From NCBI GenBank assembly GCA_042576405.1, contig JBHPFC010000016.1, positions 10,151 through 42,150 on the forward strand: 32,000 nucleotides of DNA, read 5' to 3'. This stretch comes from Pseudomonadota bacterium (GTDB lineage: Bacteria; Pseudomonadota; Gammaproteobacteria; DSM-19610). Position numbers and translations under genes: made by a program. Positions 1 to 21,736 of the stretch are shown piece by piece. The notes beneath the pieces were generated by a model. It was not told the DNA's origin and searched no databases. It saw only the letters and a program-made list of their open reading frames with translations. The first letter of the stretch is position 1. Every line of letters starts with the position of its first letter.

Positions 1-1
1 G

Positions 2-232: not shown

Positions 233-234
233 AA

Positions 235-3485: not shown

Positions 3486-3878
3486 TTACGGGTCGAGTAT
3501 ATCTTCGATCATTGATCGCAACTCTCCGTTGACCCATTCGGCGTCGGGAATGACGAACGTCAGACCGTATTCGTTGTTGGCGAGATAGATGGCCACGAAG
3601 AAGCCGTCATCACGCAGAAAAATGCCCTCCCAATAAATGTTGGTAAGCCTGCAGCCGTCCCAGAGTTCGTCGAGCTCGCGGTCGACGTCTTTCGGCTCGA
3701 TCAGAATGATGTAACCGTAGTCGTCGGGATTGTAGGGATGGCCTTCCCAGGTGTAGCCCTCGATCAATTGCTCGACGAGTTCCTTGACGATGGGGTACGC
3801 AGGGTCGTGTGGAGAGAGCTTTTTGATGTCCGCTGCTGATTGGATTTGGATCATTAGTTTTACCTTTTTTGTGGACAC
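3486..3878 (-). CDS. Hypothetical protein (130 aa from GTG 3878; more likely 122 aa from ATG 3854)
   Basis: Clean acidic globular-looking ORF. The GTG at 3878 sits inside a palindrome/terminator-like element, so ATG 3852-3854 (MIQIQSAADIKK...) is the more plausible start. Confidence 0.65.
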   Translation of the reverse strand: MSTKKVKLMIQIQSAADIKKLSPHDPAYPIVKELVEQLIEGYTWEGHPYNPDDYGYIILIEPKDVDRELDELWDGCRLTNIYWEGIFLRDDGFFVAIYLANNEYGLTFVIPDAEWVNGELRSMIEDILDP

Positions 3879-3912
3879 AAAAAAGCCCGCCGATTCGGGT
3901 GGAAGGGCGGGC
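3879..3912 (-). terminator. Putative rho-independent terminator, read on the minus strand
   Basis: GCCCGCC (3885-3891) and GGCGGGC (3906-3912) form a 7-bp GC stem with a 14-nt loop. On the minus strand the stem is followed by T6 (A-run 3879-3884 on plus). No minus-strand gene lies immediately upstream, so its role is unclear. Confidence 0.4.
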
Positions 3913-4086
3913 GCTAGGGGGTGATGTAAGATTAGTCAGGGATGGTCAGGTTGAGTGATGCTATCTATATGGAAAGTGGTTAGTATTAGACAAGCGCATG
4001 CTGCTTAAATGTATGCTTTAGAAAATAACGAATGCTTAATGATAAGGTCAGGTTGTGTATAAGCAATAAGGACCGGAATAATAGAT

Positions 4087-4728
4087 ATGAGATTTGATTG
4101 GGATAACTGGGGTGCAGGCGGGAAGACTATTTTTATCGCTGCCTGCGTAGCAATACTATCGATGTTCATGAATTGGGTTGATATAGGCATAACCACAAGA
4201 ATTGGAATATCGCAGCAAGCATTTTTACTTTTAGGGTTCTGGATATATCCAGTAGTGATGCTTTTCAACAATAAGCCAATCAATCTAGCTTGGGGGTTAT
4301 TATGTTCGGCGTTGTCATTTGTTGCCACCGCCATATATATTGCCTCTAAAACTATAGAACTTTTTGGGGAAACGACGAATGTTGCCGCAGTGGGCGCTTG
4401 GGTCTTTATTGGTGCTTCTGCTGCACTTGGGGCTGGAGTTGTCAAATACAATTCAGTAAATATTATAAATAAGAGGCTAGTCAGAGGTGGCTTAGAAGTT
4501 ACACAAATAGGTAGAGAAGCACTGGGTGAGAAAGCAGACTTAAAGCTAGGTGATGTCATAGTGAATTACTGCGGTGTCGATGTGAGAAATCATCCAAAAC
4601 TATTAGCTGATGAAATGCTCAAATATAAAAGTGACGAGACAGTACCTATCATCCTATTACGTGACTATGAGAGAGTGATAATTGATGTGCCTGGAGGAGA
4701 TCTTGGTATTCTAGTTCAAGTTATATGA
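4087..4728 (+). CDS. Membrane protein with a C-terminal PDZ-like domain
   Basis: 213 aa with about 4 hydrophobic helices in the N-terminal 120 aa. The C-terminal segment LKLGDVIVNYCGVDVRNHPKLLADEML...VPIILLRDYERVIIDVPGGDLGI matches the PDZ pattern (GD-I-..-nG..v....dl; .v.l.v.R.g). Sits in an AT-rich islet. Confidence 0.65.
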   Translation: MRFDWDNWGAGGKTIFIAACVAILSMFMNWVDIGITTRIGISQQAFLLLGFWIYPVVMLFNNKPINLAWGLLCSALSFVATAIYIASKTIELFGETTNVAAVGAWVFIGASAALGAGVVKYNSVNIINKRLVRGGLEVTQIGREALGEKADLKLGDVIVNYCGVDVRNHPKLLADEMLKYKSDETVPIILLRDYERVIIDVPGGDLGILVQVI

Positions 4729-4896
4729 GCTTTTGACTTCAAGCGGAAAACATTTCGATGTATTGCGCCGACAGTTAGAGGTATATCAACAACGCCACGT
4801 TGCAGGTTACAACGCCCGCATTAACTAATCTGTTGCCTCTATTAAGGCATAACAATGGCTGGTTTTTCCCGAAGAGGGATTCGCCAGCAAACTATT

Positions 4897-5394
4897 TTAT
4901 TTACGCTTTTCGGCCCGATATTTCCACGGTGGTATCGCATGCGGGTCTTCCCATAACCCACGTTTGCCGTCACGGGCTTCTTTCTCGGCTTCAGAATATA
5001 GGATTCGGTCAGTTTCAGACTGCTCTTTCTGATACTTCTTGTAATGCCATGCGTAGCCGGCTGACACCTGCTCCAGGCACGCATCCTCTCCACCGACAAG
5101 TACTTTACCGACGATCCTGCCGTATCGATCTCTCTTGTCATACTCCACAATGACGAAGCGACCGGCGACCGATTCAGCCAGGTGTTCTTTTGATTTCGTC
5201 CCGAATGCCTGCTTGCGCTCCGGTGCATCGATGCCCTGTAAGCGGATCTTGTGCTGAACATTCCCTTCGCTGAGTATGACGATGGTGTCGCCGTCGGTGA
5301 CCCGGACGGTGCGGCCCGTGAGAGTGGCCGCCGACGCGTACGGGACGTGAATCGTGAGAAGCAGAAAGAAAATTATGCGCATTAGGGAACCCAC
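4897..5394 (-). CDS. nuc: Secreted thermonuclease (staphylococcal nuclease/SNase family)
   Basis: Signal peptide MRIIFFLLLTIHVPYASA. SNase blocks VTDGDTI, IRLQGIDAPE, FG..SKE.L, YGRIVG, G.AWHY, EAEKEAR..KRGLW. Probable true start is ATG 5382; the track starts at GTG 5394. Confidence 0.85.
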   Translation of the reverse strand: MGSLMRIIFFLLLTIHVPYASAATLTGRTVRVTDGDTIVILSEGNVQHKIRLQGIDAPERKQAFGTKSKEHLAESVAGRFVIVEYDKRDRYGRIVGKVLVGGEDACLEQVSAGYAWHYKKYQKEQSETDRILYSEAEKEARDGKRGLWEDPHAIPPWKYRAEKRK

Positions 5395-5970
5395 TTACTG
5401 GACTACTTTTCTTCTCGCCATCCCGATCAACCCGATCAGGCCGGTGCCGAAGAGGTAAAGGGCGGAGGGGATGGGGACGGGTTGAGTTTCGATATAGAAA
5501 GATGCAGTCAGAACCGATCGTGGGATGGTTATCCTGTTGGTTGTGATTAGAATCCAGCTTGGACCAAAAATTATGCTGTCAACCGGTAATCCACCATCGA
5601 TGACCTGAGTAACGTCGATAACTTCACCTCCAATACCAGACCATTCAAGATCCTCGAAAAGCCATTCGTGAGCAGTGAAAGTATGGCCAGCCAAGTCAGT
5701 ACGAGACCAGTCCATTAAAATAGTGAAATTTGTGCCGGTGAAGTCGACGAAGCTTTCTCTAGGTTCATCTGTTAGAGGAAGGCTTGGAAACTCAACCACT
5801 GACTCGGAGACTGTTGCAGAGAATGAGACATCCCGGAAGCCCGCTGTACATGGCGTCAAACTCGAAATAGGCGAGACGCAGAAATCTATCCGATCACCAA
5901 CTAAATTTGCTTGTAGAGGTGTTACTACAAACAGCGATGCAGCAATTGTAAGGTGTAGTAATTTAGCCAA
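5395..5970 (-). CDS. PEP-CTERM/VPLPA-CTERM sorting-domain protein (secreted, exosortase-type anchor)
   Basis: N-terminal signal peptide (LTIAASLFVVTPLQA). C-terminus VPIPSALYLFGTGLIGLIGMARRKVVQ is a Pro motif, a TM helix and a basic cluster. TTG start with an AGAGG SD directly after the upstream stop. Confidence 0.75.
   Translation of the reverse strand: MAKLLHLTIAASLFVVTPLQANLVGDRIDFCVSPISSLTPCTAGFRDVSFSATVSESVVEFPSLPLTDEPRESFVDFTGTNFTILMDWSRTDLAGHTFTAHEWLFEDLEWSGIGGEVIDVTQVIDGGLPVDSIIFGPSWILITTNRITIPRSVLTASFYIETQPVPIPSALYLFGTGLIGLIGMARRKVVQ
5411..5454. repeat. Copy A of a 44-nt repeat encoding the CTERM sorting signal
   Basis: cttctcgccatcccgatcaacccgatcaggccggtgccgaagag is 41/44 identical to 5992-6035. 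Confidence 0.9.
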
Positions 5971-5981
5971 CGCGCGCCTCT

Positions 5982-6623
5982 CTATTGTTTCCTTCTCGCC
6001 ATCCCAACCAACCCGATCAGGCCGGAGCCGAAGAGCCAGACTGCGGCGGGTACGGGGACGACAGCTGGCGCGGAGCGTACCAGAGCGCTGCCGGTATATT
6101 GATGCGTAAGATCCCTCCGTAGCGGGCCATGAGTGATGTCTAGGTAATCTCGGTTTGGGTATAGGTGTCTTTCAACATGAAATAATGACGTGTTCATACT
6201 AAGAGTGCCATCGTGCCACCCAGTTATAAGGAAGGTTGCTCCATAATTTGTGTTTTCTGGATTTTCCTCTGCAAACAGATCACCAATAAAAGAAGTTACG
6301 TAATCAAAAACACCAAAATTATCGAAACTCCAACCGTTGTAATCACCGTCTCCCCCAGAAGAATTCAGTAAATTAGATATTTCTGTTAAAGAAGCGTATC
6401 TCCATCCATCGAATTCTTCACCCGGCCCCAATTTATTGCTTACATCGTCATAAGATCTATTCGCAGTAACAGTTAAGTCCAGCCACTCAAGACCGAAGTC
6501 GTCTCTGGTGATGAGATTATCTCCGACCGTTTTCCAATCATTGCTTACTAGTGCTGCATTAGATGACGGCGTGACAAAAATTAAGACCACGGCGTATAGC
6601 GTGCCTAACAAACGTGATTTCAT
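5982..6623 (-). CDS. PEP-CTERM/VPLPA-CTERM sorting-domain protein
   Basis: Signal peptide MKSRLLGTLYAVVLIFVTPSSNA. C-terminus VPVPAAVWLFGSGLIGLVGMARRKQ. GGAGG SD before the ATG. Confidence 0.8.
   Translation of the reverse strand: MKSRLLGTLYAVVLIFVTPSSNAALVSNDWKTVGDNLITRDDFGLEWLDLTVTANRSYDDVSNKLGPGEEFDGWRYASLTEISNLLNSSGGDGDYNGWSFDNFGVFDYVTSFIGDLFAEENPENTNYGATFLITGWHDGTLSMNTSLFHVERHLYPNRDYLDITHGPLRRDLTHQYTGSALVRSAPAVVPVPAAVWLFGSGLIGLVGMARRKQ
5992..6035. repeat. Copy B of the 44-nt repeat encoding the CTERM sorting signal
   Basis: cttctcgccatcccaaccaacccgatcaggccggagccgaagag is 41/44 identical to 5411-5454. Confidence 0.9.
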
Positions 6624-6733
6624 GATAATTCCTCCAACATTCTTATTCTGACTTCTTGTCGCCTCGCGCCGTCCTGGCGATCTTTATGTGCAGACAGTAT
6701 CAGAGTGAGTCGGTTGAAGGGAACTGACCTGGA

Positions 6734-6907
6734 TCAAGCCTGATCAGATTCCAGCAGTTCTTCCCGCAGGATCGTGACCTCAGGGGGCGCATCCGTGCCG
6801 ATCCGAACCTGATTGCCTTTCAGGGCGAGGATGGTGACTTTGATTTGTTCCCCGGTGGGTAACTCGATGACGAGGGATTCGCCGGGACGGCGGGTGACTA
6901 CGAGCAT
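6734..6907 (-). CDS. csrA: CsrA/RsmA-family RNA-binding translational regulator (57 aa), absent from the ORF track
   Basis: Manual translation: MLVVTRRPGESLVIELPTGEQIKVTILALKGNQVRIGTDAPPEVTILREELLESDQA. This matches the CsrA pattern ML.LTRR.GE.l.I.....v.vl..KGNQVRIG..AP..v...REE. GGAGA SD 5 nt upstream of the ATG (6905-6907). TGA at 6734-6736. Confidence 0.85.
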   Translation of the reverse strand: MLVVTRRPGESLVIELPTGEQIKVTILALKGNQVRIGTDAPPEVTILREELLESDQA

Positions 6908-6967
6908 GGCAATCTCCTTTTGCCTTGGTTGGAGTGGTCAGGGTACCGGCGGTGTTTTTCGGCTGTT

Positions 6968-8203
6968 TCAAAAATCAAGATTTGCAATTTCTATTGATAT
7001 GGCACGTTCGAGGATTTGTCTGCCCCAGGCTAAATAACCGCTCTCGCTAGTATTCAACTCAGTGACATTGCCGTGAACAAGTTTAGATCTTACGCTGTAT
7101 AATTGCTTGAAATTATTCTTAATAGTATTCCTCGCTTTTATGCTTTTACCTATCAAATAGGAGCATCTGTCGGCCAAAGTTTCTGTTAACGCGCCATTGT
7201 CTTTGGTGTCGCCTAAAAGCGCCTCAAGCCCAATACAAACCTGCAAAAACGATAAAGTACTATTTTCCGTGACATAGGAATTAAAGCACCAATTAATTGC
7301 AGACTTTATCCCTTTTGCCTCCTCATCCTGACATTCGATTAACTGGATAGGTCTTCTATTCATTGCTTGAATGGCTTTTTCTACCGCGTTTGTCTTAACC
7401 GCTAAAGCTATTGCCTTGTGCTCCCAATTTATGTCAACGCTATTTAAAAACCGGCATGTATCTAATGGGAGTTCCACTTTGGATACCTTCGGTTCCTGAT
7501 AAGCATTATCAACGCTCACGACCGATGACTTTTTTATGCTGTGTTGCGAGAGCGACCCGAGAAAACCAAGGCCTGCTTGTTTCTCAGGGGTTAACTTGAA
7601 GAAACCTCCAGCCACTCCTTGTTGCAAGATGATGTTTAAGCTGGTTAGCGCGCGTTTTACACACATGTTTTCTAAGCGTCCTCCTGAATACCCCGAAGCA
7701 CGCTGCCTTATATACACCTTCCCGACTTCAAATTTATTGAATAACTGCATCAGTCCTACTTGATAACCACCAGGTATCTCGTCAGGCATTTGAAAAGATA
7801 TTAAAGATATTGTTTCGCTTAGATCGATGGGGGTTGGGATATTTTGTGATATTTCGGGTATAGGTATGAATATGTCAAATGTTCTAGGTATGGAAACAAA
7901 ATAATTTTTTAATGTCTCTGCTATTTGCTGACATCTTTCCTCGCCTAAAAGATCCCACAAATTCCCTTCAAGCTTTTTATCACCATCGACAACAGATCTA
8001 ATTGCATCATAAGCAAAATCATAAAATATCGTAAAAACATCTGTTGAATCCAAATGCTCCTTCTTATGCTTTAAGATTTCCTTGGCGAGTGACTCAACAT
8101 GCACAGAGAATGATTCGTATTGTGGCCAATTATCTTTAATCGCACAGTTCTTTAAGGAGCCAATTATTATTTTAAATGCTTTTTCTTGAGCTTTCTGGTG
8201 CAA
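6968..8203 (-). CDS. HEPN-domain (Rx4H) protein; candidate RNase or abortive-infection effector
   Basis: 411-aa AT-rich ORF with a TTG start and an AAGGA SD. The C-terminal domain contains LYSVRSKLVHG (R at 7088-7090, H at 7073-7075), the R-x4-H signature with flanking Y..RS...HG typical of Apea/Abi-type HEPN domains. The N-terminal 300 aa are unrecognised. Confidence 0.7.
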   Translation of the reverse strand: MHQKAQEKAFKIIIGSLKNCAIKDNWPQYESFSVHVESLAKEILKHKKEHLDSTDVFTIFYDFAYDAIRSVVDGDKKLEGNLWDLLGEERCQQIAETLKNYFVSIPRTFDIFIPIPEISQNIPTPIDLSETISLISFQMPDEIPGGYQVGLMQLFNKFEVGKVYIRQRASGYSGGRLENMCVKRALTSLNIILQQGVAGGFFKLTPEKQAGLGFLGSLSQHSIKKSSVVSVDNAYQEPKVSKVELPLDTCRFLNSVDINWEHKAIALAVKTNAVEKAIQAMNRRPIQLIECQDEEAKGIKSAINWCFNSYVTENSTLSFLQVCIGLEALLGDTKDNGALTETLADRCSYLIGKSIKARNTIKNNFKQLYSVRSKLVHGNVTELNTSESGYLAWGRQILERAISIEIANLDF

Positions 8204-8242
8204 TTTATTTGTCCTTCATTAACCTACTAGTACGATTGTAAG

Positions 8243-8264
8243 TATCACTTTGAGTAAAGTGATA
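8243..8264. promoter_or_regulatory. Perfect 9-bp inverted repeat (TATCACTTT-GAGT-AAAGTGATA) 40-60 nt upstream of the HEPN gene start
   Basis: Read directly. No T-tract on either side, so it looks more like an operator than a terminator. Confidence 0.3.
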
Positions 8265-8654
8265 TGCCGTGTAAATCTATTATGTAAATGATCATATCCT
8301 GCGGAGCAATGGAAGTAGAGTATTAAGCACATATTTTGGCGTTATCTCGGCCACAACACGCTGTCAAATTCGTGCTGGGTCAAGTACATAACTTACTGCG
8401 CCGGTTTGTTGAAAGGCCTCACAAGCCTCTCGAAGTATAGCTCTTCCTTAAGCTTCCGGAGGCCTAGAGAGTGGATAGGTGGTGTAGATGTGCATTGAAT
8501 TAGGATCCAATCAGGGCAGAGAGTTGTGCGCTACTTTGAACCACTGCAAGCCGGAATATCCGCGCTTGCACAAGTCAACAGGCCGTTGGAGTGGTGGTAC
8601 ACATTTTCAATGCAAACGGGGGGTCAGAATTCACTGCGAATCAACAAACAGCAC

Positions 8655-9218
8655 TCATGACCCAGCCCGGATCACGCCGATCTTCCCCGGATGCTGAGCC
8701 TTTTCGTTGTCACGCCACTGGAAGCGGACCTCAACGGGGATACGAAACTTATCCGCAAGGCGGCTAACTTCCTTCCATGCATCCGGGGCCGATTGTCCCT
8801 GAATTGAGATGCCCAGCTCTGAGTAAAACTTGTACCCATCCTTCGTGTACTCCGATGCTTTGGCCGGAATCTGTAGTTCGGTGACCAGCTTCTCGCCGCT
8901 CAGGCCCTTCGCCTTGACAATGCCGATTACTTTCATCAGCAATCCAGCCCAGTTCAATTTATCCGGATCACCGTCGTTCACGCGAGTGGACAGGATGCGT
9001 GTGAAAGAAAGACCGGGCGCTTTTTCGAATACCAAGTCCTCACCGCTATTGTTCTTATGGAGGTTTGCATCATCGACGTCACGCTCCAGGTCGAGGGCAT
9101 CCATTTTGTCGCGGACGATTGCAGCTATGGTCTCGGCGGGGGTATTTGTTCCAATCCAAGTTGAGATGATCTTTAGATCTACGAATGTGGCGTCGTTGAG
9201 TCGAATAACAGGCATCAT
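8655..9218 (-). CDS. Hypothetical protein (187 aa from ATG 9218)
   Basis: The ORF is open from 9281, but an AGGAG SD sits 7 nt before ATGATG at 9213-9218 (MMPVIRLNDATFVDLK...). The N-terminus resembles the short beta-strand/helix pattern of SeqA-N/RHH-like modules; this is a weak impression. The rest is unrecognised. Confidence 0.65.
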   Translation of the reverse strand: MMPVIRLNDATFVDLKIISTWIGTNTPAETIAAIVRDKMDALDLERDVDDANLHKNNSGEDLVFEKAPGLSFTRILSTRVNDGDPDKLNWAGLLMKVIGIVKAKGLSGEKLVTELQIPAKASEYTKDGYKFYSELGISIQGQSAPDAWKEVSRLADKFRIPVEVRFQWRDNEKAQHPGKIGVIRAGS

Positions 9219-9255
9219 CAGCTGCTCCTGGGTAATTTTTAAAGCCAAACTATAT

Positions 9256-9300
9256 GTTACATATTCTATATTTATTGTCAAGATAATAGGTTACATATTC
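9256..9300. promoter_or_regulatory. Two perfect 11-bp direct repeats, GTTACATATTC (9256-9266, 9290-9300), in the AT-rich region upstream of the 8655-9218 gene
   Basis: Read directly. Centre-to-centre spacing is 34 bp (about 3 helical turns), and each copy is followed by (T)ATAT. Confidence 0.3.
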
Positions 9301-9373
9301 ATATATTCTTGATTTAGGTAGAGATAATTGTATAGATTGCGCTTGCTGCAGGTCTGGTTGATGCCAAAAATAG

Positions 9374-9925
9374 TTATTCAAATGCCGGATGACTCATCTG
9401 CAGGGACAATCCGTTGATCCACCGAGTCCGTCCCACCTTGCGCTCGTGAATGGAGATGTAAAGCGGCCGGACGTGCGGGAGCAGCGTTAGCATGTCCGAT
9501 ACCGTCCGGGGCGATACCCAGCAGAATCCGGTCCATCGCTTTTCGCCGCGAACCTTCTCGATGAGGCCGATGCCATCTGGTAAGTCGTAGATGGGAATCT
9601 CCTCACCTCGAATCCTGCGGTATTTTTGCGTGCCGTCTTCATCTCTAACGTGACAATCCGACAGTCTGGCCTCGAACTGACCCTCCTCAGTCTCCCATCC
9701 ATGAACCGTGATGGTGTACTTCTCGCCGGAGCGCTCGTCGGGATAATCGCAGATGCCCTCCAGCTCCACCGATGACCCGAATGAGTAGATTTCGGGATCG
9801 GCGTGATGATGACGCTTGTCCCTGGTGTCATGGTTGACGGATGCGTTAATGCTTGCCTTGTATCCGCTCAGGGGGATGGAGAGCAGTTCGTATTCGACCG
9901 AGGTGGATTTCTTCTTTTTGGCCAT
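9374..9925 (-). CDS. Hypothetical protein (183 aa), divergent from hsdR
   Basis: Long ORF with protein-like composition. The overlapping 114-aa ORF in another frame is R/S/P-rich junk. No family recognised. Confidence 0.65.
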   Translation of the reverse strand: MAKKKKSTSVEYELLSIPLSGYKASINASVNHDTRDKRHHHADPEIYSFGSSVELEGICDYPDERSGEKYTITVHGWETEEGQFEARLSDCHVRDEDGTQKYRRIRGEEIPIYDLPDGIGLIEKVRGEKRWTGFCWVSPRTVSDMLTLLPHVRPLYISIHERKVGRTRWINGLSLQMSHPAFE

Positions 9926-10103
9926 GTTGGGTATCCCTTCAATGACAGAGTAGGGTGTCGACCGTCCCTGTGCTAGGATTGCTCATGAAACGGAGGGAGA
10001 TTCATAAAATAATCAATGAGATATCTCGTGTTGGTGTGATTGCCCTGGTCCCGGACGATACGAAACTAGAACTTGGGAGCCACAAGAACACTTGTGATTG
10101 GTG

Positions 10104-12458
10104 ATGGATAGTAAAGAAAAGAAAAAGCTCAGTGAAATAGACATCTGTGATCTGTTCATTACCCCTGCTATCAAGGGTGCCGGTTGGGATCAGCTGACTC
10201 AGATACGTCGTGAGGTCACTTTGACGCCGGGACCAGTTATTGTTCGCGGCAATATGTCCTCGCGCAACAAGAAAAAGAAGAAGTTCGCGGATTACGTTCT
10301 GCAACGGGAGGCGGGTGTGCCCATCGCTATTGTCGAAGCCAAAGACAACAATCACACCGTCAGCCATGGCATGCAGCAGGCCTTGGGATACGCCGAGATC
10401 CTGCATGTGCCCAGCGCCTTCAGCTCCAATGGCGATGCATTTGCTTCGCACAACAAACTGGCGCCCGCTACCGGTGCGGAAACGGAAACCGAGTTTCCGC
10501 TAGAGTCGTTCCCCACGCCGGCCGAGCTCTGGCAGCGCTACAAAACCTACCGCGGCATTGAAGACAGCGAAGAAGAGCTCGTAACCGAGCCTTACCAGGA
10601 CGATGGTTCCGGAAAAGAGCCTCGCTACTACCAGGCAGAGGCGATAAACCGCGTAATCGAAGCCGTTGCTAAAGGCAAAAAGCGCCTGCTGCTGGTTATG
10701 GCCACGGGAACCGGCAAAACCTACACCACATTCCAGATCATCTGGCGCCTGTGGAAGGCAAAAAAAGCCAAGCGAATCCTGTTTCTGGTCGATCGCAACA
10801 TTCTGGCCGACCAAACCCTGGTCAATGACTTCAAGCCCTTCGGCTCCGTCATGACCAAAATCAAGAACCGCAAGATTGACCCGTCCTACGAGATCTACCT
10901 CGGACTCTATCAGGCGCTCACCGGCCCGGACGAAGAAGACAAGATCTTCAAAAATGTCTCGCGGGATTTCTTCGATCTGATTGTGATCGATGAGTGCCAC
11001 CGCGGCAGCGCATCCGAAGATTCAGCCTGGCGGGAAATCCTCGATTACTTTTCCGATGCCATCCAACTGGGCATGACGGCCACGCCCAAAGAAACCGAGT
11101 ACGTTTCCAACATCACCTATTTTGGCGAGCCCGTTTACACCTATACGCTCAAGCAGGGCATCGAAGACGGCTTCCTGGCCCCTTATAAAGTCGTCCGCAT
11201 CGATATTGATAAGGATATTCTGGGCTGGACGCCGCCGCCGGGCATGAAGGACGACCTCGGTCAGGAAATCGAGCAGCGCGAGTACAACCAAAAAGACATG
11301 GACCGCATCCTGGTACTCAACCAGCGCACCAAGCTGGTGGCCAAATGCGTAATGGAGTTGCTCAACGCCACCGAACCCTATGCCAAGACCATTATCTTCT
11401 GTGAAGACATCGATCACGCCGAACGCATGCGCAAAGCCATCGTGAATGCGGCCGGCCAGATCGCTATCGACAACCCCAAATACGTCATGCGTATCACAGG
11501 TGACAGCGTGGAGGGCAAGGCGGAGCTGGATAACTTCATTGATCCGGAAAGCAAGTTCCCGGTCATCGCCACCACCTCAGAGCTGCTTTCTACCGGGGTG
11601 GATGCCAAAACCTGCAAACTCATTGTGCTGGATAAAAACATCAAATCCATGACCACCTTTAAACAGATCATCGGCCGTGGCACCCGTATTGAGGAAGAGC
11701 AAAACAAGTACTACTTCACCGTCATGGATTTCAAAAAGGCGACAGAGCTGTTTAAAGACCCCGATTTCGACGGTGAGCCAGTCGTTATTTATGAGCCCAG
11801 CGGTGGTGATGACCCGGTACCACCTGATCCCGACTATCCGGACGATGATCCCGACGGCGATGGGGTAGAGGACGAGCCGGGCACCTATAAGGTCCAAGTC
11901 AGCGGCGTCGAGGTGAAAATCCTAGCAAAACGCGTGGAATACCTGGGCCCAGATGGCCAGCTCATTACCGAGTCCTATAAAGACTACTCAAGAAAACAAA
12001 TTCGTTCCGAATTCGCCTCCCTCGACGAGTTCCTCAACAAATGGAACAGTGCTAAAAAGAAGGAAGCCATCATTAAAGAGCTGGAAGACCACGGTATCCT
12101 TCTCGCCAGCCTCGCGCTGGAAGTCGGCAAGGAATACGGCGATTTCGACCTCATCTGCCACATCGCCTACGACATGCCGCCGCTCACTCGCAAAGAGCGC
12201 GCCAACAACGTCAAGAAACGCAATTACTTCACCAAATACGGTGAGCAGGCGAGGGCAGTGCTGGAATCCCTGCTCGACAAGTACGCTGACGAAGGCATCA
12301 CCACCATCGAAAGCCCGCGCGTGTTAAAACTCAGGCCCTTCGACAGCATGGGCACGCCCATGGAAATCATCAACAATGCTTTTGGCGGCAAGGAACACTA
12401 CGAAAAGGCCGTCCAGGAGCTGGAACAGGAACTCTACTATCAGGATAAATCGGCATGA
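10104..12458 (+). CDS. hsdR: Type I restriction enzyme R subunit (HsdR)
   Basis: N-terminal nuclease motif ADYVL...IAIVEAKD. Helicase motif I MATGTGKT and motif [10 protein letters not shown], then GMTATP and later SF2 motifs ([18 protein letters not shown]). ATG 10104 is preferred over the track TTG at 10098. Confidence 0.95.
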
Positions 12459-13951
12459 GTAATGTCAGCGGTATCATCAAGTCCATCCAGGACATCATGC
12501 GCAAAGACGTCGGCGTCGACGGCGACGCCCAGCGCATCAGTCAGCTGGTGTGGATGTTTTTCCTCAAGATCTACGACGACCGCGAGGCAGAGCTGGAATT
12601 ACTGGAAGACGATTACCAGTCGCCGCTGCCGGAAAAGCTCCGCTGGCGCAATTGGGCCGCCGATCCGGAGGGTATGACGGGCGACGAACTCAACGAGTTT
12701 GTTAATCTCCAGCTGTTCCCGACGCTGAAGACCGGGCTCAAACTGAAGGGGCCGACAGGTCAGCGCGCCCTGGTCATCCGCAACATCTTCGAAGACGCCT
12801 ACAACTACATGAAGTCCGGCACTCTGATCCGCCAGGTCATCAACAAGATCTGCGAAATCGACTTCAACAACACCGAAGATCGCCACACCTTCGGCAGTAT
12901 TTACGAACAAATCCTCAAGGACCTGCAAAGCGCCGGTAACGCGGGTGAGTTCTATACCCCGCGCGCCGTCACCCAATTCATTGTCAACCGGGTGGCCCCG
13001 CAACTTAAGGAATCCGTGCTCGACCCGGCCTGCGGCACCGGCGGCTTTCTGGCCTGCACCATAGATCACAAGCGCGACACCTACGTGAAGTCCGCCAAGG
13101 ACGAAGAGGCGCTGCAAAAGAGCATTCACGGCGTGGAGAAAAAAGCCCTGCCGCACATGCTCTGCACCACCAACATGATCCTGCACGGCATCGACGTGCC
13201 CGTTCAGATTGAGCACGACAACATGCTCAGCCGCCGCGCCTACAAAGACTATGGCGAAAAAGACCGCGTCAACGTCATCGTCACCAACCCGCCCTTCGGC
13301 GGCATGGAAGAAGACGGCGTGGAGAACCAGTTTCCCGCCACCTACCGCACACGCGAAACAGCCGATCTGTTCATGGCGCTGGTCATCAAGCTGCTCAAAA
13401 ATCGCGGCCGCGCCGCCGTAGTGCTGCCTGACGGCTTCTTATTCGGTGAGGGGATGAAAACCCGCCTCAAGCAGGAGTTGCTGGAAAAGTGCAATCTGCA
13501 CACCATCGTGCGCCTGCCCAATGGCGTGTTTGCGCCTTACACCGGCATCAAAACCAACATCCTGTTCTTCACCAAAAAGCCCGAAAGCGAGCAGCCCGGC
13601 ACCTCACAGGTCTGGTACTACGAGCACCCTTACCCGGAAGGTGTGACCAGCTACAACAAAACCAAGCCCATGCGCTTCGAAGAGTTCGCCACCGAGATCG
13701 AGTGGTGGGGCAATGAGCAAGACGGCTTCAAAGCCCGCAAACAAACCGAGCAGGCGTGGCAGGTCAGCGTCGAAGATATCGTAGCCCGTAACTACAATCT
13801 CGATATCAAGAACCCCCACGTCGGCGAACAGGTCAACCACGATCCGGAACAACTGCTGGCCGACTATCAGCAGCAACAGAGCGAGATTCAAAGCCTGCGT
13901 GACCAGCTGAAAACCATTCTGTCCGACGCGCTAACCGGGGCGAACAAATAA
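12455..13951 (+). CDS. hsdM: Type I R-M N6-adenine DNA methyltransferase subunit (HsdM)
   Basis: HsdM N-terminal domain. AdoMet motif [13 protein letters not shown] and catalytic motif [11 protein letters not shown]. The ATG overlaps the hsdR TGA as ATGA (12455-12458). Confidence 0.95.
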
Positions 13952-15747
13952 TGCCAGCGGCCGAACAACTCATCACGGCTAACCTGGATATCTGGTCATC
14001 GGCCATCAAAACCAAATCTGCCGCAGGCCGTGGCAATAGCAAAAAGCGCGAGCTTTACGGCATAAAAAAACTGCGTGAGCTGATCATGGAGCTGGCTTTT
14101 TCAGGAATGCTTGTGGCAACTGATAAGGTGCAGGTGAACCACGAAGATTTGCTGTCGAAAATGACCGATGAAAAAGCGGATTTTCATAAGCGAAAGGGCG
14201 TTCGTCTTCAGAAGTTTAAGGAGCTGCCAGATATTGACGTGAGCCTAAAATGTCCAGCCAGTTGGGAAACGGTATATTTTGACCAGGTGATCAAATACAT
14301 AACTGATTTTCAAGCTAACGGTAGCTTCGCGACCCTAAAGAAGAATGTAACTTACTATGAATCGCCCAATTATGCCTTGTTGCTGAGGCTTACAGATTTA
14401 AGGCATGGGCTTACGGATAGTAGCAATTACAAGTATACAGATGAGGCAGGTTACAAATTCTTAGCGAAATCATCTATTGACGGTGGTGAATTAGTTATCG
14501 CAAATGTCGGGGCGGGGGTTGGTACTACATTAATGGTCCCCGAGCTCGATATGCCAGCGACGTTGGCTCCAAATATGTTTATGGTTGTTCTGTCCGATCT
14601 TATAAGCAAAGAATACTTTCTATATTTTTCACAGTCGCCAGCATATTGGAAGCACATAGAGCAGGTGAATACCGGAACAGGCCAGCCGAAGATAAATAAA
14701 ACCGAGTATAAGAACTGCAAGATTCCGCTGCCTTCACATTCCGAACAGCTAAGAATCGTCGCCAAAGTCGACGAACTCATGGCCCTCTGCGACCAGCTGG
14801 AACAGCAGCAAGAAACCAGCATCACCGCCCATCAGACCCTGGTGCAAACTCTGCTCGACGCACTGACCACGGCCAGCGAGCGCGACGGCTTCACCGCCGC
14901 TTGGGCAAGAATCGCCGACCACTTCGACGCCCTCTTCACCACCGAGTGGAGCATCGACCAGCTCAAAAAAACCGTCCTCCAGCTCGCCGTCATGGGCAAA
15001 ATTATCCCGCAGGATCCCAACGACGAACCAGCCTGCGAGCTTCTTAAGAAAATTGCCGCCGAGAAGGCCCAGCTGGTGAAGGTAGGCAAGATCAAGAAAC
15101 AAAAAGCGTTACCGCGGATTGAAGATGATGAAAAGCCTTTTGCGCTGCCGGATGGTTGGTGCTACACGAGGCTTGATGATCTTTGCGCTTGGATCACTTC
15201 CGGTTCTACACCGCCAAAGTCAGAATTTCAGGATCATGGGGGCGTGCCTTATCTCAAGGTATACAATATTCGCGAACAAGCGATAGATTTCGACTACAAG
15301 CCGCAGTTCGTTAATTCTGCGTGTCACGAAGGTAAGTTAAAGAGGTCGATTCTTTATCCCGGTGACGTAGTAATGAATATCGTTGGCCCGCCATTAGGGA
15401 AGATCGCTATTATTCCAGATACCCACCCAGAGTGGAATTGTAATCAAGCAATTGCCTTTTTTCGTCCCATCGATATAAGGCTTAATTCCTATATTTATAC
15501 GTATTTAACTTCCCATCTGTTTCTTGGTTACATCGAGCTTATTGGCACGGCGGGCCAAGACAACATATCAGTAACAAAAAGCAGAACCATAGTCTTTCCC
15601 ATGCCGCCGTTCGAAGAGCAGTGCCGAATCGTTGCTAAAGTTAATGAACTCCTGGCCCTTTGCGACACGCTGAAGGTAGGTCTTAACAACGCCCAAGCCA
15701 CCCAATTGCAATTGGCCGATTCCATGACCGAACAAGCTGTTGCGTGA
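13951..15747 (+). CDS. hsdS: Type I R-M specificity subunit (HsdS) with two target-recognition domains
   Basis: Two variable AT-richer TRDs are each followed by a conserved helix: EQLRIVAKVDELMALCDQLE (14743-14802) and EQCRIVAKVNELLALCDTLK (15616-15675). The ATG overlaps the hsdM TAA as TAATG (13949-13953). Confidence 0.95.
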   Translation: MPAAEQLITANLDIWSSAIKTKSAAGRGNSKKRELYGIKKLRELIMELAFSGMLVATDKVQVNHEDLLSKMTDEKADFHKRKGVRLQKFKELPDIDVSLKCPASWETVYFDQVIKYITDFQANGSFATLKKNVTYYESPNYALLLRLTDLRHGLTDSSNYKYTDEAGYKFLAKSSIDGGELVIANVGAGVGTTLMVPELDMPATLAPNMFMVVLSDLISKEYFLYFSQSPAYWKHIEQVNTGTGQPKINKTEYKNCKIPLPSHSEQLRIVAKVDELMALCDQLEQQQETSITAHQTLVQTLLDALTTASERDGFTAAWARIADHFDALFTTEWSIDQLKKTVLQLAVMGKIIPQDPNDEPACELLKKIAAEKAQLVKVGKIKKQKALPRIEDDEKPFALPDGWCYTRLDDLCAWITSGSTPPKSEFQDHGGVPYLKVYNIREQAIDFDYKPQFVNSACHEGKLKRSILYPGDVVMNIVGPPLGKIAIIPDTHPEWNCNQAIAFFRPIDIRLNSYIYTYLTSHLFLGYIELIGTAGQDNISVTKSRTIVFPMPPFEEQCRIVAKVNELLALCDTLKVGLNNAQATQLQLADSMTEQAVA

Positions 15748-16736
15748 TGACAATCAAAATTGCGCCAATACCGGATTTGCCTGATGAGCTTCTCGCTGCG
15801 GCTCAGGCAGGAAGGCTTGTGCCATTCGTGGGGGCTGGTGTTTCACGGATTGCCGGTTGCCCGGGGTGGGATGCCCTTGCAAATGCCTCACTTCAGCAAA
15901 TGGTTGATGCTGGAAGGTTATCGTATGCCGAGTTAGAGCAATGTCAGTCAATTACAGCGCCAAGGATAAAGCTGTCGATGGCGGAGTTGATCGCGAGGAA
16001 GCATGGGTTATCAATAGACTACAAAAAAGTCCTGGAACGACCAGGCTGGCAAATGAATTCCAAAGGCTTACAGTGCTATGGAGCGCTAGGGCAACTAGGG
16101 CAGCGATTTGTCACAACCAATTATGACGGATGGCTGGACTATGAGTATCCAACTGTTCCCGGCGCCCCTGTGCCGACAGGCCCGTCGAGTACGCCAAGCT
16201 ACGCTACTAGGCTGGCATATTATGATCGTAGCGACTTTACTGCTGCGCGATTTCGAGAACCCAACACCGTCATCCATCTCCATGGTTCGTTGCAGAACCC
16301 AGGCAGCATGATTCTGACTATGCGTGACTACATCTCTCACTACGCTAATGATCGGGGCGGCGGTGGAGATGAGGAGAACCAGGTGTTGACGTTTCTCGAG
16401 CACCTATTTGAAGACAAGACCGTCCTTTTTGTCGGATATGGTCTCGAGGATTTGGATATCCTCGAACACGTCGTCCAGAAGGCCCGTGGCATGGCGCGCG
16501 GGAGGAGCTTAGTGCGTCACTATATGCTGCAGCCCTATTTTTCCTATGAGCAGGGCCTTGCGGAGAACATGGAGCGCTATTTCCGTGAAGAGTGTGGTAT
16601 CGCATTGTTGCCATACCAGCGTGACAGTAAGAATTACGACCAACTCATTGATGTCTTGACAGATTACGCGCGGCGAATTCCAGCAGCAGATCCGATGGTG
16701 CTGCAGGACCTGCGCGAGATGGAAGGAATGATCTGA
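15747..16736 (+). CDS. SIR2-family (SIR2_2-like) protein; predicted NAD+-consuming effector
   Basis: GAGVS (15831-15845), TTNYD (16113-16127), HLHGS (16275-16289) and VLFVGYGLEDLD give the Rossmann/Asn/His signature of defence-type sirtuin domains. The ATG 15747 overlaps the hsdS TGA as TGATG. Confidence 0.85.
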   Translation: MTIKIAPIPDLPDELLAAAQAGRLVPFVGAGVSRIAGCPGWDALANASLQQMVDAGRLSYAELEQCQSITAPRIKLSMAELIARKHGLSIDYKKVLERPGWQMNSKGLQCYGALGQLGQRFVTTNYDGWLDYEYPTVPGAPVPTGPSSTPSYATRLAYYDRSDFTAARFREPNTVIHLHGSLQNPGSMILTMRDYISHYANDRGGGGDEENQVLTFLEHLFEDKTVLFVGYGLEDLDILEHVVQKARGMARGRSLVRHYMLQPYFSYEQGLAENMERYFREECGIALLPYQRDSKNYDQLIDVLTDYARRIPAADPMVLQDLREMEGMI

Positions 16737-19576
16737 TGGTTGTGCTCAACTCAAAAGAGCAATCTCTGATTGAATACATGGGGAGGAGCGATGAGCATCT
16801 GCGCAAGGGTGTCAGTCTGATCGTCGATCGGGGAGATCCGGGTCGATATTTCGAGGCAGTTCAGGCCGCAGGCTTGTTAGATTCGGGCAAAAACCCGATG
16901 CCTGTGGCGACAGAGGATGGCAAGTACTGGCAAATACCATACTGGCCGATGCTTGATTTTCTCGTTGCTTGCACCAAACAAGCGGAACAAGGTGACGATG
17001 GCGAACTGGCTAATCAGGTCTTGCAGATCATTCGGTCTGTCAGTCAATCGGTCGAGAACAATGGTGGCGAGCCCAACAACTATCACACATTTCGAGTCTT
17101 TGCGGACATATTGGGATTAGTGCCGACTACCGCAGTAACAATGGCTGATGTAGATCTTATTCCCATTTGGCTAGGTGGAAGATTCGACCGCGGTGGCGTC
17201 TGTAACTCTCTCGATAAAGGCGCAGTGAAGCGGTTTCTCGATAGTCACAGTGCTGAAGACTGGCGGAAAGCACTTCGTATAATGGAGCATTGCACAGCGA
17301 CTTTATGGATAGATAAGGAAGGGTTCCACGGTGGCGTGCGTCGAGAGCCGGAGTCGGTAGTTGATGATCACTGGCTTAAGGAGATGATCAAGCATCACGC
17401 CGCAGTGCTCGGGCAGAAGCTAGGGCAGGAGGCTGCGGAAGTATTCCGAGATTGGGTAAGGGAAGTCTATCGAGAAGATGAGAGGGATCTTCCGAGCTAC
17501 ATCTTTCGACCAGCCATCGAAGAGAATGAGCAGAACTACGACTGGAATGGTGTTGATAATCGTTCCATAGAGGCGCTGCGTGACGCGCTCGATGGATGGA
17601 TAGCTGCAAACGGTGGCGATGTCACGGAGTATGTTAAGGGGCTGCTAGAAGATGAGCTAGAAATACTGAGGCGAACTGCGCTCTATTTGATAAATACTCA
17701 TTGGGATAGATTGGATGAAGTGCTGTCGCGCAGCATGGGTGTGGCCCTTTTCGATCAAGATATGCATCACGAACTTTATGATCTACTGGATGCAAGGTTC
17801 ATGTCGTTTTCAAACCCGTTAAAAGAAGCAACGGTCAATGCGATAGAGTCGATCCCACTCTCTGCAACAGACGATAATCCCGAATTATTGTTAGCGCGAA
17901 TTAGGCGGCGATGGTTATCTGCTATTGTTGGCAAGGGTTCTGAGCGAGCAGACCAGCTGTACGCGACCCTAATGCAGAATTACGATCTCGGTCGCCTGTC
18001 AAAGCATCCGAATTTTCTTTCGTATAGCGAGTCTAGGTCGGGCCCTGGCCCCTCGCCATATTCACCACAAGAACTCGCCGAGCTGAATCGAGGCGGCACC
18101 TTGATTGCAACTTTGGAAGCGTTTGAGCCTGGTGATACATGGGAAGGGCCTACAAAAAGAGCATTGGTTGATTCCTTAGAAGCAGCGGTGGGTCTCGATC
18201 CGGCTTCATTTATAAAGGCCTTACCCAGCTTCTTAGCTACGGAGCGTTGCTATCAGTACGGCGTCATTAACGGCTTCAAGGGGTTGTGGGATCGAGCAGA
18301 CAAAGACGATATGTCGTCTGGGTCTGGATGGGACTCTGCATGGCCAGCACTTTTTGACTTTTTTTCTTCACTTATTTCGGGCGATGCGTTTTGGGATGAA
18401 GAGGCTCCCGAGGATCGGGATATGACACCGACCCGTGACTGGATTCCCGGGCTGATTGCGGATTTTTTGCGTGCAGGTACTCGAGATGACGAAAAGGCAT
18501 ACTCGCCAGATTTGTTGCCGGCCGCACTACCAATAATTGATCGTTTATTGAATAAAGGGCAGGCAGTAGATGCGCCTAGCGATAATGCGATGACGCAAGC
18601 AATAAATTCCCAGAAAGGCAAAGCTGTGGAAGCTCTTTATGGTTATGCGCTAAGGTCAGCGAGGGTTGCGGACAATACCGATGGGAATCACGATGATGCT
18701 TGGGCGGCGGTTGAGCCAATCTACAACAGGGAGTTGGAGCTTTGCCATGGAGGCAATTTCGAGTTCTCGACATTGCTAGGTTCATACCTAGCTAATCTGG
18801 AATACTTGAACATTGCCTGGGTTGAGAATCATTTCCGGGATATCTTTTCGGAGGTGAATCCTGAGAACTTCGTGTGCGCACTAGGCGGCTTGGCTTATGG
18901 CCAGGCAACTCGCAGATCATTCGCTCTGTTACGCGACAATAACGTTTTCAATGCGGCCATTGGTCTGGATCTGCCCGGAAACCACACACGCGAAAAACTC
19001 GTGCAGCGTATCGCTTTGGGCTATTTGTGGGGCGACGAGCCGCTGGATTCAACGTGCTTCAATTTGATTTTTGACAATCACATTGATGGGGATCTTCAGA
19101 CGATTGCGACATTTTTCTGGAGCATAAGTAACCAGGACGTTGCTGATGAGCAAATTGAGAGAATCATGGCGTTCTGGACGCGTTGCGTGGAATGGGCGGC
19201 GGCTCAAACACCGGCACCGGAGGCATTGCTGGCGAAACTGAGCTTGTTGTCTTGCTATCTCAATGAAATCTCCGACGATAATCTGCAGCTTATGTTGGCG
19301 TGCGTTCCGTATGTTAACAACACCAATTATTCTTGGGAGTTGACCAAGACGTTGGAGTCCCTTGCGACCGAGAGCCCAGCAAACGTCGTTCAGGTTCTTG
19401 ATAAGTATTTGGAAAACTATCGCCCAAATTATGATTATCAGGAGTTGCTTAATAGTCTGATAAGGAAGCTGGCCCAAGGGGGGCAGAGGCTGGCGGCGTT
19501 GCGATTTACTGAAGACTTGCGTCAGCTTAGGGGTATGGACGAACTGTATCGAGAACTGATAGCTGATGACGATTGA
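16736..19576 (+). CDS. 946-aa protein of unknown function, probably all-alpha repeat; partner of the SIR2 gene
   Basis: Uninterrupted 2.8-kb ORF. Its ATG overlaps the SIR2 TGA as TGATG (16734-16738). Rich in W/D/E/L. I see no Walker A, no HD/PD-ExK/TIR/protease motif and no obvious TM helix. Confidence 0.85.
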   Translation: MVVLNSKEQSLIEYMGRSDEHLRKGVSLIVDRGDPGRYFEAVQAAGLLDSGKNPMPVATEDGKYWQIPYWPMLDFLVACTKQAEQGDDGELANQVLQIIRSVSQSVENNGGEPNNYHTFRVFADILGLVPTTAVTMADVDLIPIWLGGRFDRGGVCNSLDKGAVKRFLDSHSAEDWRKALRIMEHCTATLWIDKEGFHGGVRREPESVVDDHWLKEMIKHHAAVLGQKLGQEAAEVFRDWVREVYREDERDLPSYIFRPAIEENEQNYDWNGVDNRSIEALRDALDGWIAANGGDVTEYVKGLLEDELEILRRTALYLINTHWDRLDEVLSRSMGVALFDQDMHHELYDLLDARFMSFSNPLKEATVNAIESIPLSATDDNPELLLARIRRRWLSAIVGKGSERADQLYATLMQNYDLGRLSKHPNFLSYSESRSGPGPSPYSPQELAELNRGGTLIATLEAFEPGDTWEGPTKRALVDSLEAAVGLDPASFIKALPSFLATERCYQYGVINGFKGLWDRADKDDMSSGSGWDSAWPALFDFFSSLISGDAFWDEEAPEDRDMTPTRDWIPGLIADFLRAGTRDDEKAYSPDLLPAALPIIDRLLNKGQAVDAPSDNAMTQAINSQKGKAVEALYGYALRSARVADNTDGNHDDAWAAVEPIYNRELELCHGGNFEFSTLLGSYLANLEYLNIAWVENHFRDIFSEVNPENFVCALGGLAYGQATRRSFALLRDNNVFNAAIGLDLPGNHTREKLVQRIALGYLWGDEPLDSTCFNLIFDNHIDGDLQTIATFFWSISNQDVADEQIERIMAFWTRCVEWAAAQTPAPEALLAKLSLLSCYLNEISDDNLQLMLACVPYVNNTNYSWELTKTLESLATESPANVVQVLDKYLENYRPNYDYQELLNSLIRKLAQGGQRLAALRFTEDLRQLRGMDELYRELIADDD

Positions 19577-19636
19577 AGCGCACAGGTTTCGTTTGCCCCA
19601 TACGTATTGCATCAGCCTGATTCAGTTCCCCCGATT

Positions 19637-19692
19637 CCTTTGTCCCAATGCAATAACGCCATGAATTCCATGAGCGGCGGCCGGGACAAAGG
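19637..19692. repeat. 10-bp perfect inverted repeat CCTTTGTCCC / GGGACAAAGG with a 36-nt spacer, between the island's last gene and the tRNA
   Basis: Read directly (19637-19646 and 19683-19692). Nearby imperfect direct repeats ATAACGC(C/T)ATGAAT lie at 19653-19666 and 19720-19733. Confidence 0.5.
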
Positions 19693-19743
19693 GGATTCCG
19701 ATCCCTTGGTCTCAACGACATAACGCTATGAATATTCTATGGA

Positions 19744-19820
<77 letters not shown>

Positions 19821-19885
19821 TTGACTGGTGGGGGAGTGTACCTGCCGATCGCGGGGGCGTCACCTGTTGATGATGCCCCGCTAGA

Positions 19886-21736
19886 TCAGGAATCGATTTC
19901 CAGGAAACTGCGCAGCTGTTCCGAGCGGCTCGGATGACGCAGTTTACGCAGTGCCTTGGCTTCAATCTGACGAATACGCTCACGTGTAACGTCGAACTGT
20001 TTGCCGACTTCTTCCAGCGTGTGGTCCGTATTCATATCGATACCAAAGCGCATGCGCAATACCTTGGCTTCGCGAGGTGTGAGGCCACAGAGTACGCCTT
20101 GAGTAGCCTCTTTCAGGCCAGCGCCGGAAGCAGAATCAACCGGTGAGTCAATGCTGGTGTCCTCGATGAAATCGCCCAGGTGTGAGTCTTCGTCATCACC
20201 GATCGGGGTTTCCATGGAGATGGGTTCCTTGGCGATCTTGAGCACCTTGCGAACCTTGTCTTCCGGCATGTCCATGCGTTCGGCAAGTTCTTCAGGCAGC
20301 GGTTCGCGCCCCATTTCCTGCAGCATTTGCCGGGAGATGCGGTTCAGCTTGTTGATGGTCTCAATCATATGCACCGGAATACGGATGGTGCGTGCCTGGT
20401 CGGCAATTGAACGTGTAATCGCCTGACGGATCCACCAGGTGGCGTAAGTCGAGAACTTGTAACCACGGCGGTATTCAAACTTGTCCACCGCCTTCATCAG
20501 GCCGATATTGCCTTCCTGGATCAGGTCGAGGAACTGCAGGCCACGGTTGGTGTATTTCTTGGCAATGGATATAACCAGGCGCAGGTTGGCTTCCACCATT
20601 TCTTTCTTGGCACGGCGTGCCTTGGCCTCGCCAATGGACATGCGGCGATTGATGTCCTTGATCTGGCTGATGCTCAGGCTGGTATCTTTCTGGATATTTA
20701 CCAGCTTGTTCTGGGCGCGCAGTATTTCTTCCTTGTGCTGTTCCAGCACTGGCGAGTACTTGTGCCCGCCCTTGATCTGGGTGTCCAGCCAGTTAAGGTC
20801 AGTTTCATTATCCGGGAAGGAGGTGATGAAGTCTTTTCTCGGCATCAGCGCGTCGTGTACGCAGATGCCCATAATCACACGCTCGTGGGTGCGGATACGC
20901 GCCACAGTTTTACGCAGACTATCGGTCAGGGTTTCCACCATGCGTGGTGCCAGTTTCAGGCATTTCAGGTGTTCGACCATCTGGACAACAGCTTTCTCAA
21001 TACGAGATTCGTTGCGGGTCTTGGCATTGAGTGCGGTAATCAGCTTGTCATGCAACTTACGCAGTTCAGCGAAGAATTCGCGTGTTTCTTCCGGATCAGG
21101 GCCGGTGTCTACAGGTGCGGCCTCTTCTTCATCGTCGTCTTTATCTTTGTCTTTGTCAGCATCATTGCCTTTGCTGGCGTCGTTCGCGGCAGCAGGTGAC
21201 GGAATCGGCTCGTCAACAGCATTCGGATCAATGAAGCCGGTAAACAAATCGGTCAGGCGTGATTCACCTGCCTCGACCTTGGCGTACTCATCAAGCAGTC
21301 GTTTTGATGTTGCCGGGTAGCTGGAAAGCGCCTGGTAGACCTGGCCCAGCCCATCTTCTATGCGCTTGGCAATCTCAATTTCGCCTTCTCGGGTGAGCAG
21401 CTCAACCGTGCCCATTTCCCGCATGTACATACGTACCGGGTCGGTGGTGCGACCAAACTCACTGTCGACCGTTGCCAGGGCTGCGGCAGCTTCTTCGGCA
21501 GCGTCTTCGTCAGCTGGAGAAGATTCGTTGGACATGATCAGCGTGTCGGCGTCAGGTGCGGTTTCGTGCACCTGGATACCCATGTCGTTGATCATGCCGA
21601 TAATGTCTTCGATCTGCTCCGGATCGACGATGTCATCCGGCAGATGGTCATTAACCTCGGCATAGGTAAGGAAGCCCTGCTCTTTACCTTTGGCGATCAG
21701 CAGTTTGAGTTGCGATTGTTGGTTCTGGTTCATCAC
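19886..21736 (-). CDS. rpoD: RNA polymerase primary sigma factor sigma-70 (RpoD)
   Basis: 616 aa with region 1.1, an acidic spacer, region 2 ([52 protein letters not shown]), and regions 3 and 4 ([27 protein letters not shown]). Confidence 0.97.

Follow-up and report, generated by a model that had tools for sequence, protein, structure and literature searches.

What does a large protein without a Pfam domain do when its gene overlaps the end of a gene for a SIR2-domain protein? This question is raised by a 32,000-nucleotide (nt) stretch of gammaproteobacterial DNA (GenBank assembly GCA_042576405.1, contig JBHPFC010000016.1, positions 10,151 to 42,150; hereafter the window, in whose coordinates all positions are given), where a SIR2 gene is followed by a gene for a 946-residue protein that the public records found, like those for its relatives, label "hypothetical protein". 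Our analysis identifies the 946-residue protein as the sensor half of DSR1, a named defence family, and sequence comparison points to the pair as a widespread, unannotated two-gene variant of DSR1, that is, a known system and not a new one. The features on which this answer depends are the following.

15744–16736, forward strand: SIR2 effector subunit, predicted NADase (Pfam SIR2_2, PADLOC Dsr1, BLASTP)
16721–16738, forward strand: coupling junction of the SIR2 and sensor genes (read directly from the sequence)
16736–19576, forward strand: sensor subunit of split DSR1, 946 amino acids (aa), predicted all-alpha solenoid without an enzymatic domain (open reading frame, PADLOC, hhalign, AlphaFold2)

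The identification derives from the homology of both proteins to Dsr1, a name (defence-associated sirtuin 1) introduced in a 2020 defence-gene survey (cited in later papers as Gao et al. 2020). Specifically, the SIR2 protein corresponds to positions 1–298 of the 1227-position PADLOC Dsr1 model PDLC04166 (E = 3.1e-54) and the sensor to positions 330–1205 (E = 2.8e-96), and the two are jointly collinear with the model, with no domain missing. Because both genes map consecutively on one Dsr1 model, the pair is a DSR1 split at the inter-domain linker. An initial annotation of this DNA, made from the sequence without database searches, had described the larger protein as lacking any recognisable motif and had left its function open. 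The first statement holds for short motifs and Pfam but gives way before the PADLOC Dsr1 profile, and the second is superseded by membership of a named family.

The relationship can also be followed to a canonical Dsr1. A second database search with a diverse profile, which owing to its word prefilter otherwise returned mostly the same family, yielded P0192, a 1262-aa protein whose 1949 bits on the NCBIfam Dsr1 equivalog NF041818 exceed the cutoff of 1400 and thus mark it as canonical. The sensor-family profile aligned with P0192 in hhalign at 96.7% probability (E = 3.6e-10; residues 241–743 on 603–1077, 440 columns), the identity between the sensor and P0192 being ~18% over the aligned core, and the SIR2 protein aligned with P0192 residues 8–219 (BLASTP, E = 8e-9). 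Relatives in which the two halves are fused form a bridge, scoring 41–79 bits on NF041818 (E = 1e-11 to 1e-22). The alignment of the sensor with P0192 is anchored by two common polar motifs, SYxxRPAIEDHxQN and AINSPKGKAIEAL, which are encoded as follows.

17495–17536, forward strand: codons of the polar motif S-Y-x-x-R-P-A-I-E-x-x-x-Q-N, residues 254–267 (invariant columns of alignment A1)
18599–18637, forward strand: codons of the motif A-I-N-S-x-K-G-K-A-x-E-A-L, residues 622–634 (invariant columns of alignments A1 and A2)

The first motif, with Q266 and N267 invariant in A1, aligns with SYVHQPSINEHPQN of P0192, and the second, with N624, G628 and E632 invariant also in the wider alignment A2, aligns with AINHPVGHVTEAL. 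These five positions are among the 24 invariant residues of the family alignment. Retention of both motifs up to canonical Dsr1 despite such low identity is unexpected for a sensor presumed to rely on broad shape complementarity, and the motifs may serve in effector docking, allosteric relay or ligand binding.

With respect to the effector, the upstream gene encodes 330 aa if translation begins with the GTG at 15744, but the ATG at 15747 (329 aa) is the likelier start and the one called in the orthologue from its closest related locus (L034). The protein carries Pfam SIR2_2 (E = 2.3e-20), and over 33 loci the motifs G30xG32, TTN126YD128 and H178xH180G show ≥95% conservation, with the catalytic Asn126 and His180 retained; given this conservation, the effector looks active. 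A Shine-Dalgarno-like GGAAGGA (16721–16727) lies within the 3′ end of the SIR2 gene, whose TGA stop (16734–16736) shares base 16736 with the sensor ATG (16736–16738), producing a 1-nt overlap between different frames. Effector and sensor are therefore two open reading frames (ORFs) here, and not the single polypeptide by which DSR1 is defined.

How general is this arrangement? A first protein search returned 45 relatives of the sensor, nearly all of 927–952 aa apart from four shorter fragments, and no Pfam domain was found in any of the 45. An exhaustive search of 1.84 billion cluster representatives then identified 1,729 (E ≤ 0.001). The best 150 of these include 123 near-full-length proteins, comprising 115 standalone proteins, three SIR2 fusions (1227–1271 aa), four TIR fusions (~1100 aa) and one protein of 1052 aa with an N-terminal extension without a Pfam match. 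A fused relative of 1320 aa is also found on B. anthracis pXO1.

The comparison also took in 34 related loci, drawn from metagenomes and reference genomes and spanning Gamma-, Alpha- and Deltaproteobacteria, Nitrospirota, Acidobacteriota and Zixibacteria; a contig end cuts two of them short, which leaves 32 that are informative. In all 32 a SIR2 ORF lies immediately upstream of the sensor, so the split is kept at 24–76% identity and in several phyla, and in 30 the end of the SIR2 gene, including its stop codon, overlaps the start of the sensor gene. This overlap measures 8 nt in 14 loci, 4 nt in 13, 1 nt in two and 11 nt in one. Between the two ORFs the frame offset is +2 in 17 loci, +1 in 15 and zero in none, and a GGAG-type motif is usually present within the SIR2 3′ end upstream of the sensor start. 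The partnership with SIR2 that the initial annotation had proposed is thus a constant feature of the informative loci. A cultured example is provided by Vibrio coralliilyticus plasmid pOCN014 (24% identity, 8-nt overlap), on which the pair is annotated as "SIR2 family protein" and "hypothetical protein". A tblastn search of 50,697 phage records gave no match to the gene.

Three of these loci show peculiarities of their own. At positions 2372–5089 of L018, from a metagenome-assembled genome labelled Enhydrobacter aerosaccus, the SIR2-containing frame extends over 905 codons from stop to stop with SIR2 at 571–903, a hint that the protein is extended at its N-terminus or carries a further fused domain. 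The sensor of L026 and that of L029 are each divided between two ORFs, through a frameshift or an assembly error.

Several observations indicate that the two proteins act together. The pairwise identities of SIR2 and sensor proteins correlate across 29 loci (Pearson r = 0.72, a value reached by none of 2000 Mantel permutations), and the two genes co-evolve. Moreover, fused and standalone sensors are interleaved, with the sensor of the fused protein P0146 being 60% identical to the standalone P0147, and this close pair supplies a Rosetta-stone argument for physical interaction. The TIR fusions P0121, P0139, P0168 and P0174 place a TIR domain instead of SIR2 ahead of the same sensor. Their nearest sensor neighbours, at 41–44% identity, are the standalone P0140, P0142 and P0158, which may represent split TIR–sensor systems. 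Recurrent fusion and fission of this kind is a classic signature of physically interacting partners.

In terms of the sensor itself, the ORF runs from ATG to stop exactly where the initial annotation had placed it, and two peptides cited there were located at residues 793 and 882. Regular-expression scans for Walker A, DEAD/H, HNH, HD and PD-(D/E)xK motifs found none, which for these five agrees with that annotation, and Pfam returned zero domains at E ≤ 0.1. Because the maximum 19-residue Kyte-Doolittle hydropathy is only 1.47, no transmembrane helix is present, as had been supposed, and in the same hydropathy scan the N-terminus showed no hydrophobic stretch. The composition had been called rich in Trp, Asp, Glu and Leu; relative to typical bacterial proteins this is correct for the first three (1.69×, 1.65× and 1.28×) and not for Leu (only 1.1×), and the protein is strongly acidic (151 D+E vs 88 K+R). 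The tandem alpha-helical repeats that had been predicted are recovered in an AlphaFold2 model built from a 42-sequence alignment (mean pLDDT 88.6, pTM 0.60), which is all-alpha with ~53 helices and a single beta-hairpin at residues 189–207. Low-confidence segments in this model (residues 427–435 and 524–529), together with the pTM and pLDDT values, are compatible with lobes joined by hinges. The profile and fold searches linked the protein neither to an enzyme family nor to housekeeping machinery, a possibility that the initial annotation had named. Separately, residues 836–923 gave a weak PADLOC match to OloA of the Olokun system (PDLC03925, E = 8.2e-5, positions 85–172 of 596), which may reflect a common helical-repeat unit.

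Turning to mechanism, previous work has shown that DSR1 depletes nicotinamide adenine dinucleotide (NAD+) upon infection, in a transient and non-abortive manner against phi29 (bioRxiv 10.1101/2021.12.14.472415). The trigger of EcDsr1 was identified in a 2026 study as the phage major capsid protein, recognized via an Avs7-type sensor (preprint PMC12803255, published PMC13581612). The bilobed helical-repeat sensor is common to Dsr1 and the STAND protein Avs7; in the latter it wraps around the HK97-fold major capsid protein, and many alternative effectors occur in combination with it (PMC13581612). Binding and activation by HK97-fold major capsid proteins are known only for EcDsr1 and SeAvs7 (PMC12803255, PMC13581612).

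The best explanation of the locus, to which we assign a probability of about 0.8, is a two-gene DSR1 anti-phage system composed of a sensor and a SIR2 effector, with NAD+ hydrolysis triggered by a phage protein. The SIR2 protein and the sensor are made from overlapping, translationally coupled genes and most likely assemble into a complex equivalent to single-chain Dsr1, the break between them falling at the natural inter-domain linker. During infection the alpha-solenoid sensor would bind a phage protein, with the HK97-fold major capsid protein as the leading candidate, as for the E. coli Dsr1 and Avs7 sensors. A conformational or oligomeric change of the complex would then switch on the SIR2 NADase, and the fall in NAD+ would stop phage replication. 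The present analysis shows that both halves are homologous to Dsr1, that the split is conserved, that the two genes co-evolve, that SIR2 has kept its catalytic motif and that the modelled fold is all-helical; that the pair forms a complex, cleaves NAD+, responds to this trigger and protects against phage is what we infer. The notion of a helical-repeat sensor of phage proteins beside a SIR2 effector, already put forward in the initial annotation, gains from the Dsr1 homology of the sensor, from its upstream SIR2 partner and from the SIR2 and TIR fusions.

Some results weigh against this explanation. On NF041818 the pair falls far short of the 1400-bit cutoff, with 12.6 bits for the sensor and 31.5 for the SIR2 protein, and at this distance the trigger specificity of Dsr1 is not confidently transferable. 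A Foldseek search of the sensor model against the PDB gave no specific match, with TM-scores ≤0.39 to generic HEAT/ARM proteins. Conservation is uniform along the sensor, with no hypervariable target-binding segment found, and hence does not point to a binding site for a target. In addition, the homology of the family to the Avs7 sensor is drawn solely through Dsr1.

Comparison with known systems places the pair nearest to Dsr1. The two share a SIR2 effector with catalytic Asn and His and a helical sensor of ~900 aa in collinear order, including both polar motifs; they differ in that canonical Dsr1 is one polypeptide of ~1250 aa, whereas here there are two overlapping genes with scores far below the NF041818 cutoff, embedded at the 3′ end of a type I restriction–modification (R-M) operon. 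Avs7 resembles the present family in the modularity of its sensor, which is found here with SIR2 and TIR effectors, but the protein described here has no STAND NTPase or Walker A; no NTPase family was detected in it with Pfam, NCBIfam or PADLOC, so that it lacks the hallmark of Avs proteins. PDB sequence searches with the sensor protein and with the family profile gave no meaningful match, and PDB searches, including one with canonical Dsr1 as the query, did not retrieve SeAvs7 (9YIX, 9N00, 9N01).

DSR2 joins a SIR2 domain to C-terminal HEAT repeats, with which it recognises the phage tail tube (PMC10981675, PMC11087589). The likeness lies in the control of a SIR2 NADase through a large alpha-solenoid whose ligand is a phage structural protein (predicted in the present case), but DSR2 is a single chain of ~1000 aa with a different sensor family. 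PADLOC Dsr2 models gave no match to the pair at E ≤ 0.1. In the structure check recommended by the initial annotation (AlphaFold2 followed by Foldseek), the all-alpha solenoid had no DSR2 chain among its top 50 PDB matches, though DSR2 entries are in the library. On these two grounds the closest comparator is a Dsr1/Avs7-type sensor and not DSR2. SIR2–HerA and SIR2/pAgo systems likewise have a SIR2 NADase gene adjoining that of a separate controlling partner, but the partner here is a repeat-protein sensor without an ATPase or a nucleic-acid-guided module.

Among the alternatives, the one that survives best retains the identity of the pair as a split DSR1 and changes only the trigger, which might be the tail tube (as in DSR2), the portal or another infection cue. 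The ~18% identity to the canonical Dsr1 core, far below equivalog level, leaves room for such a change; defence helical-repeat sensors have diverged to many targets (PMC13581612), and the study that described the action of Bacillus DSR1 does not report what triggers it (bioRxiv 10.1101/2021.12.14.472415). The absence of a PADLOC Dsr2 match speaks against it. We judge such a trigger a substantial possibility that falls short of even odds.

A more doubtful alternative concerns how the effector is held in check. Here the free sensor would be an antitoxin-like inhibitor of the SIR2 NADase, and a phage protein would free SIR2, which might then oligomerise. Separate polypeptides can dissociate, the overlapping order with the effector upstream and its partner downstream recalls toxin–antitoxin operons, and other SIR2 defence proteins are regulated via oligomerisation. 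In fused relatives, however, which come as close as 60% identity, dissociation is impossible and function is presumably preserved. This speaks for activation inside the complex, as in the two-gene DSR1 mechanism above, and makes release of SIR2 rather improbable.

About equally speculative is an extension of the DSR1 reading in which the sensor would be an exchangeable receptor subunit, docking non-covalently and re-pairing with SIR2 or TIR effectors in trans, with the motifs at residues 254–267 and 622–634 as a universal site for effector docking or allosteric relay. If this were true, the pair would amount to a two-component receptor for phage proteins, in which sensor and effector are exchanged and evolve semi-independently of each other.

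A further alternative arises from the position of the pair in the genome. Directly upstream, and on the same strand, lies a further defence system, and downstream lies a tRNA gene.

10098–15747, forward strand: complete type I R-M system, with hsdR at 10098–12458, hsdM at 12455–13951 and hsdS at 13951–15747 (Pfam, PADLOC)
19744–19820, reverse strand: tRNA with a CAT anticodon in the 3′ flank of the operon (ARAGORN)

The five genes hsdR-hsdM-hsdS-SIR2-sensor form a chain in which stop and start overlap at every junction, with the SIR2–sensor pair at its 3′ end; the overlap motifs from hsdR through SIR2 (10098–16736) are ATGA, TAATG and GTGATG, and HsdR has an EcoEI-type C-terminal domain. It thus appears that a single operon is translated into two defence systems. 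This raises the idea that the pair guards the co-transcribed R-M system and fires when a phage anti-restriction protein disables it, in the manner of PrrC with EcoprrI. In its favour are the stop-to-start overlaps of all five genes and the conservation of their order in L034, the locus of the closest relative (P0002, 76% identity), which comes from a different metagenome. Among the related loci, however, L034 is the only one with this order; no hsdR or hsdS was found near the pair in the others examined, and two of these contain weak methyltransferase matches several kilobases away. Since the order is confined to the window and L034, the R-M association is a lineage-specific co-location that lies outside the module, and since the pair is found without hsdR and hsdS, it moves and persists alone, as in a defence-island style of co-location. 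Functional coupling to the R-M system is largely rejected on this distribution and must be considered very unlikely.

Finally, although the two ORFs lie in different frames and are jointly collinear with a fused Dsr1 model, as expected if a single-chain Dsr1 had been broken by a frameshift or an assembly error or if programmed ribosomal frameshifting rejoined them, a frameshift artefact, a recent pseudogene and programmed frameshifting are rejected with hardly any residual doubt, because the split is conserved across all informative loci, overlap lengths vary, both +1 and +2 offsets occur, every sensor has its own start codon, usually with a GGAG-type motif upstream, the standalone form predominates among near-full-length proteins, and no slippery heptamer was seen at the junctions inspected.

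As for what a two-gene DSR1 means, Pfam finds no domain in the sensor proteins and NCBIfam scores them far below its Dsr1 cutoff, so that neither database names them, and a literature search found no paper describing or testing a two-gene DSR1. Recognition of this form would give a likely function to a large family in Proteobacteria, Nitrospirota, Acidobacteriota and Zixibacteria, while revealing no new defence principle. A naturally separate sensor and effector would also be handy for working out how sensors of the Dsr1 type activate a SIR2 NADase, a step for which we found no solved structure.

The surroundings of the pair offered further minor observations. Beyond the tRNA, rpoD and then dnaG follow on the minus strand (ORFs). 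ARAGORN calls the tRNA(CAT) as Met, and by eye it resembles an ileX-type tRNA-Ile2(CAU). The spacer between the sensor gene and the tRNA contains partial inverted copies of the anticodon-arm/variable-loop segment of the tRNA on the forward strand, at 19634–19647 and 19690–19714 (14 nt at 93% and 14 nt at 86%), which could be remnants of a past rearrangement or integration at the tRNA. No att-like direct repeat of the tRNA 3′ end was found within positions 1–20000 of the window, and no integrase among the ORFs of at least 150 aa in the window.

Further upstream, two tandem paralogous ORFs on the reverse strand (5395–5970 and 5982–6623), both without a Pfam match, have a 73-nt 3′ end in common at 84% identity, which translates to VPIPSALYLFGTGLIGLIGMARRK and by eye resembles a PEP-CTERM-type sorting tail. 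Next to them, also on the reverse strand, a 165-aa staphylococcal-nuclease-domain protein is encoded at 4897–5394 (Pfam SNase, E = 4e-23), and PADLOC matches it weakly to C3a212, a candidate defence protein (SNc+LTD, E = 6e-9). The 18-nt sequence CCAAATACGTCATGCGTA forms an exact direct repeat at 1364–1381 and 11476–11493, possibly by chance; the second copy lies inside hsdR, and the first inside an unannotated 448-aa ORF (235–1581) with a weak PADLOC PDC-M09A match.

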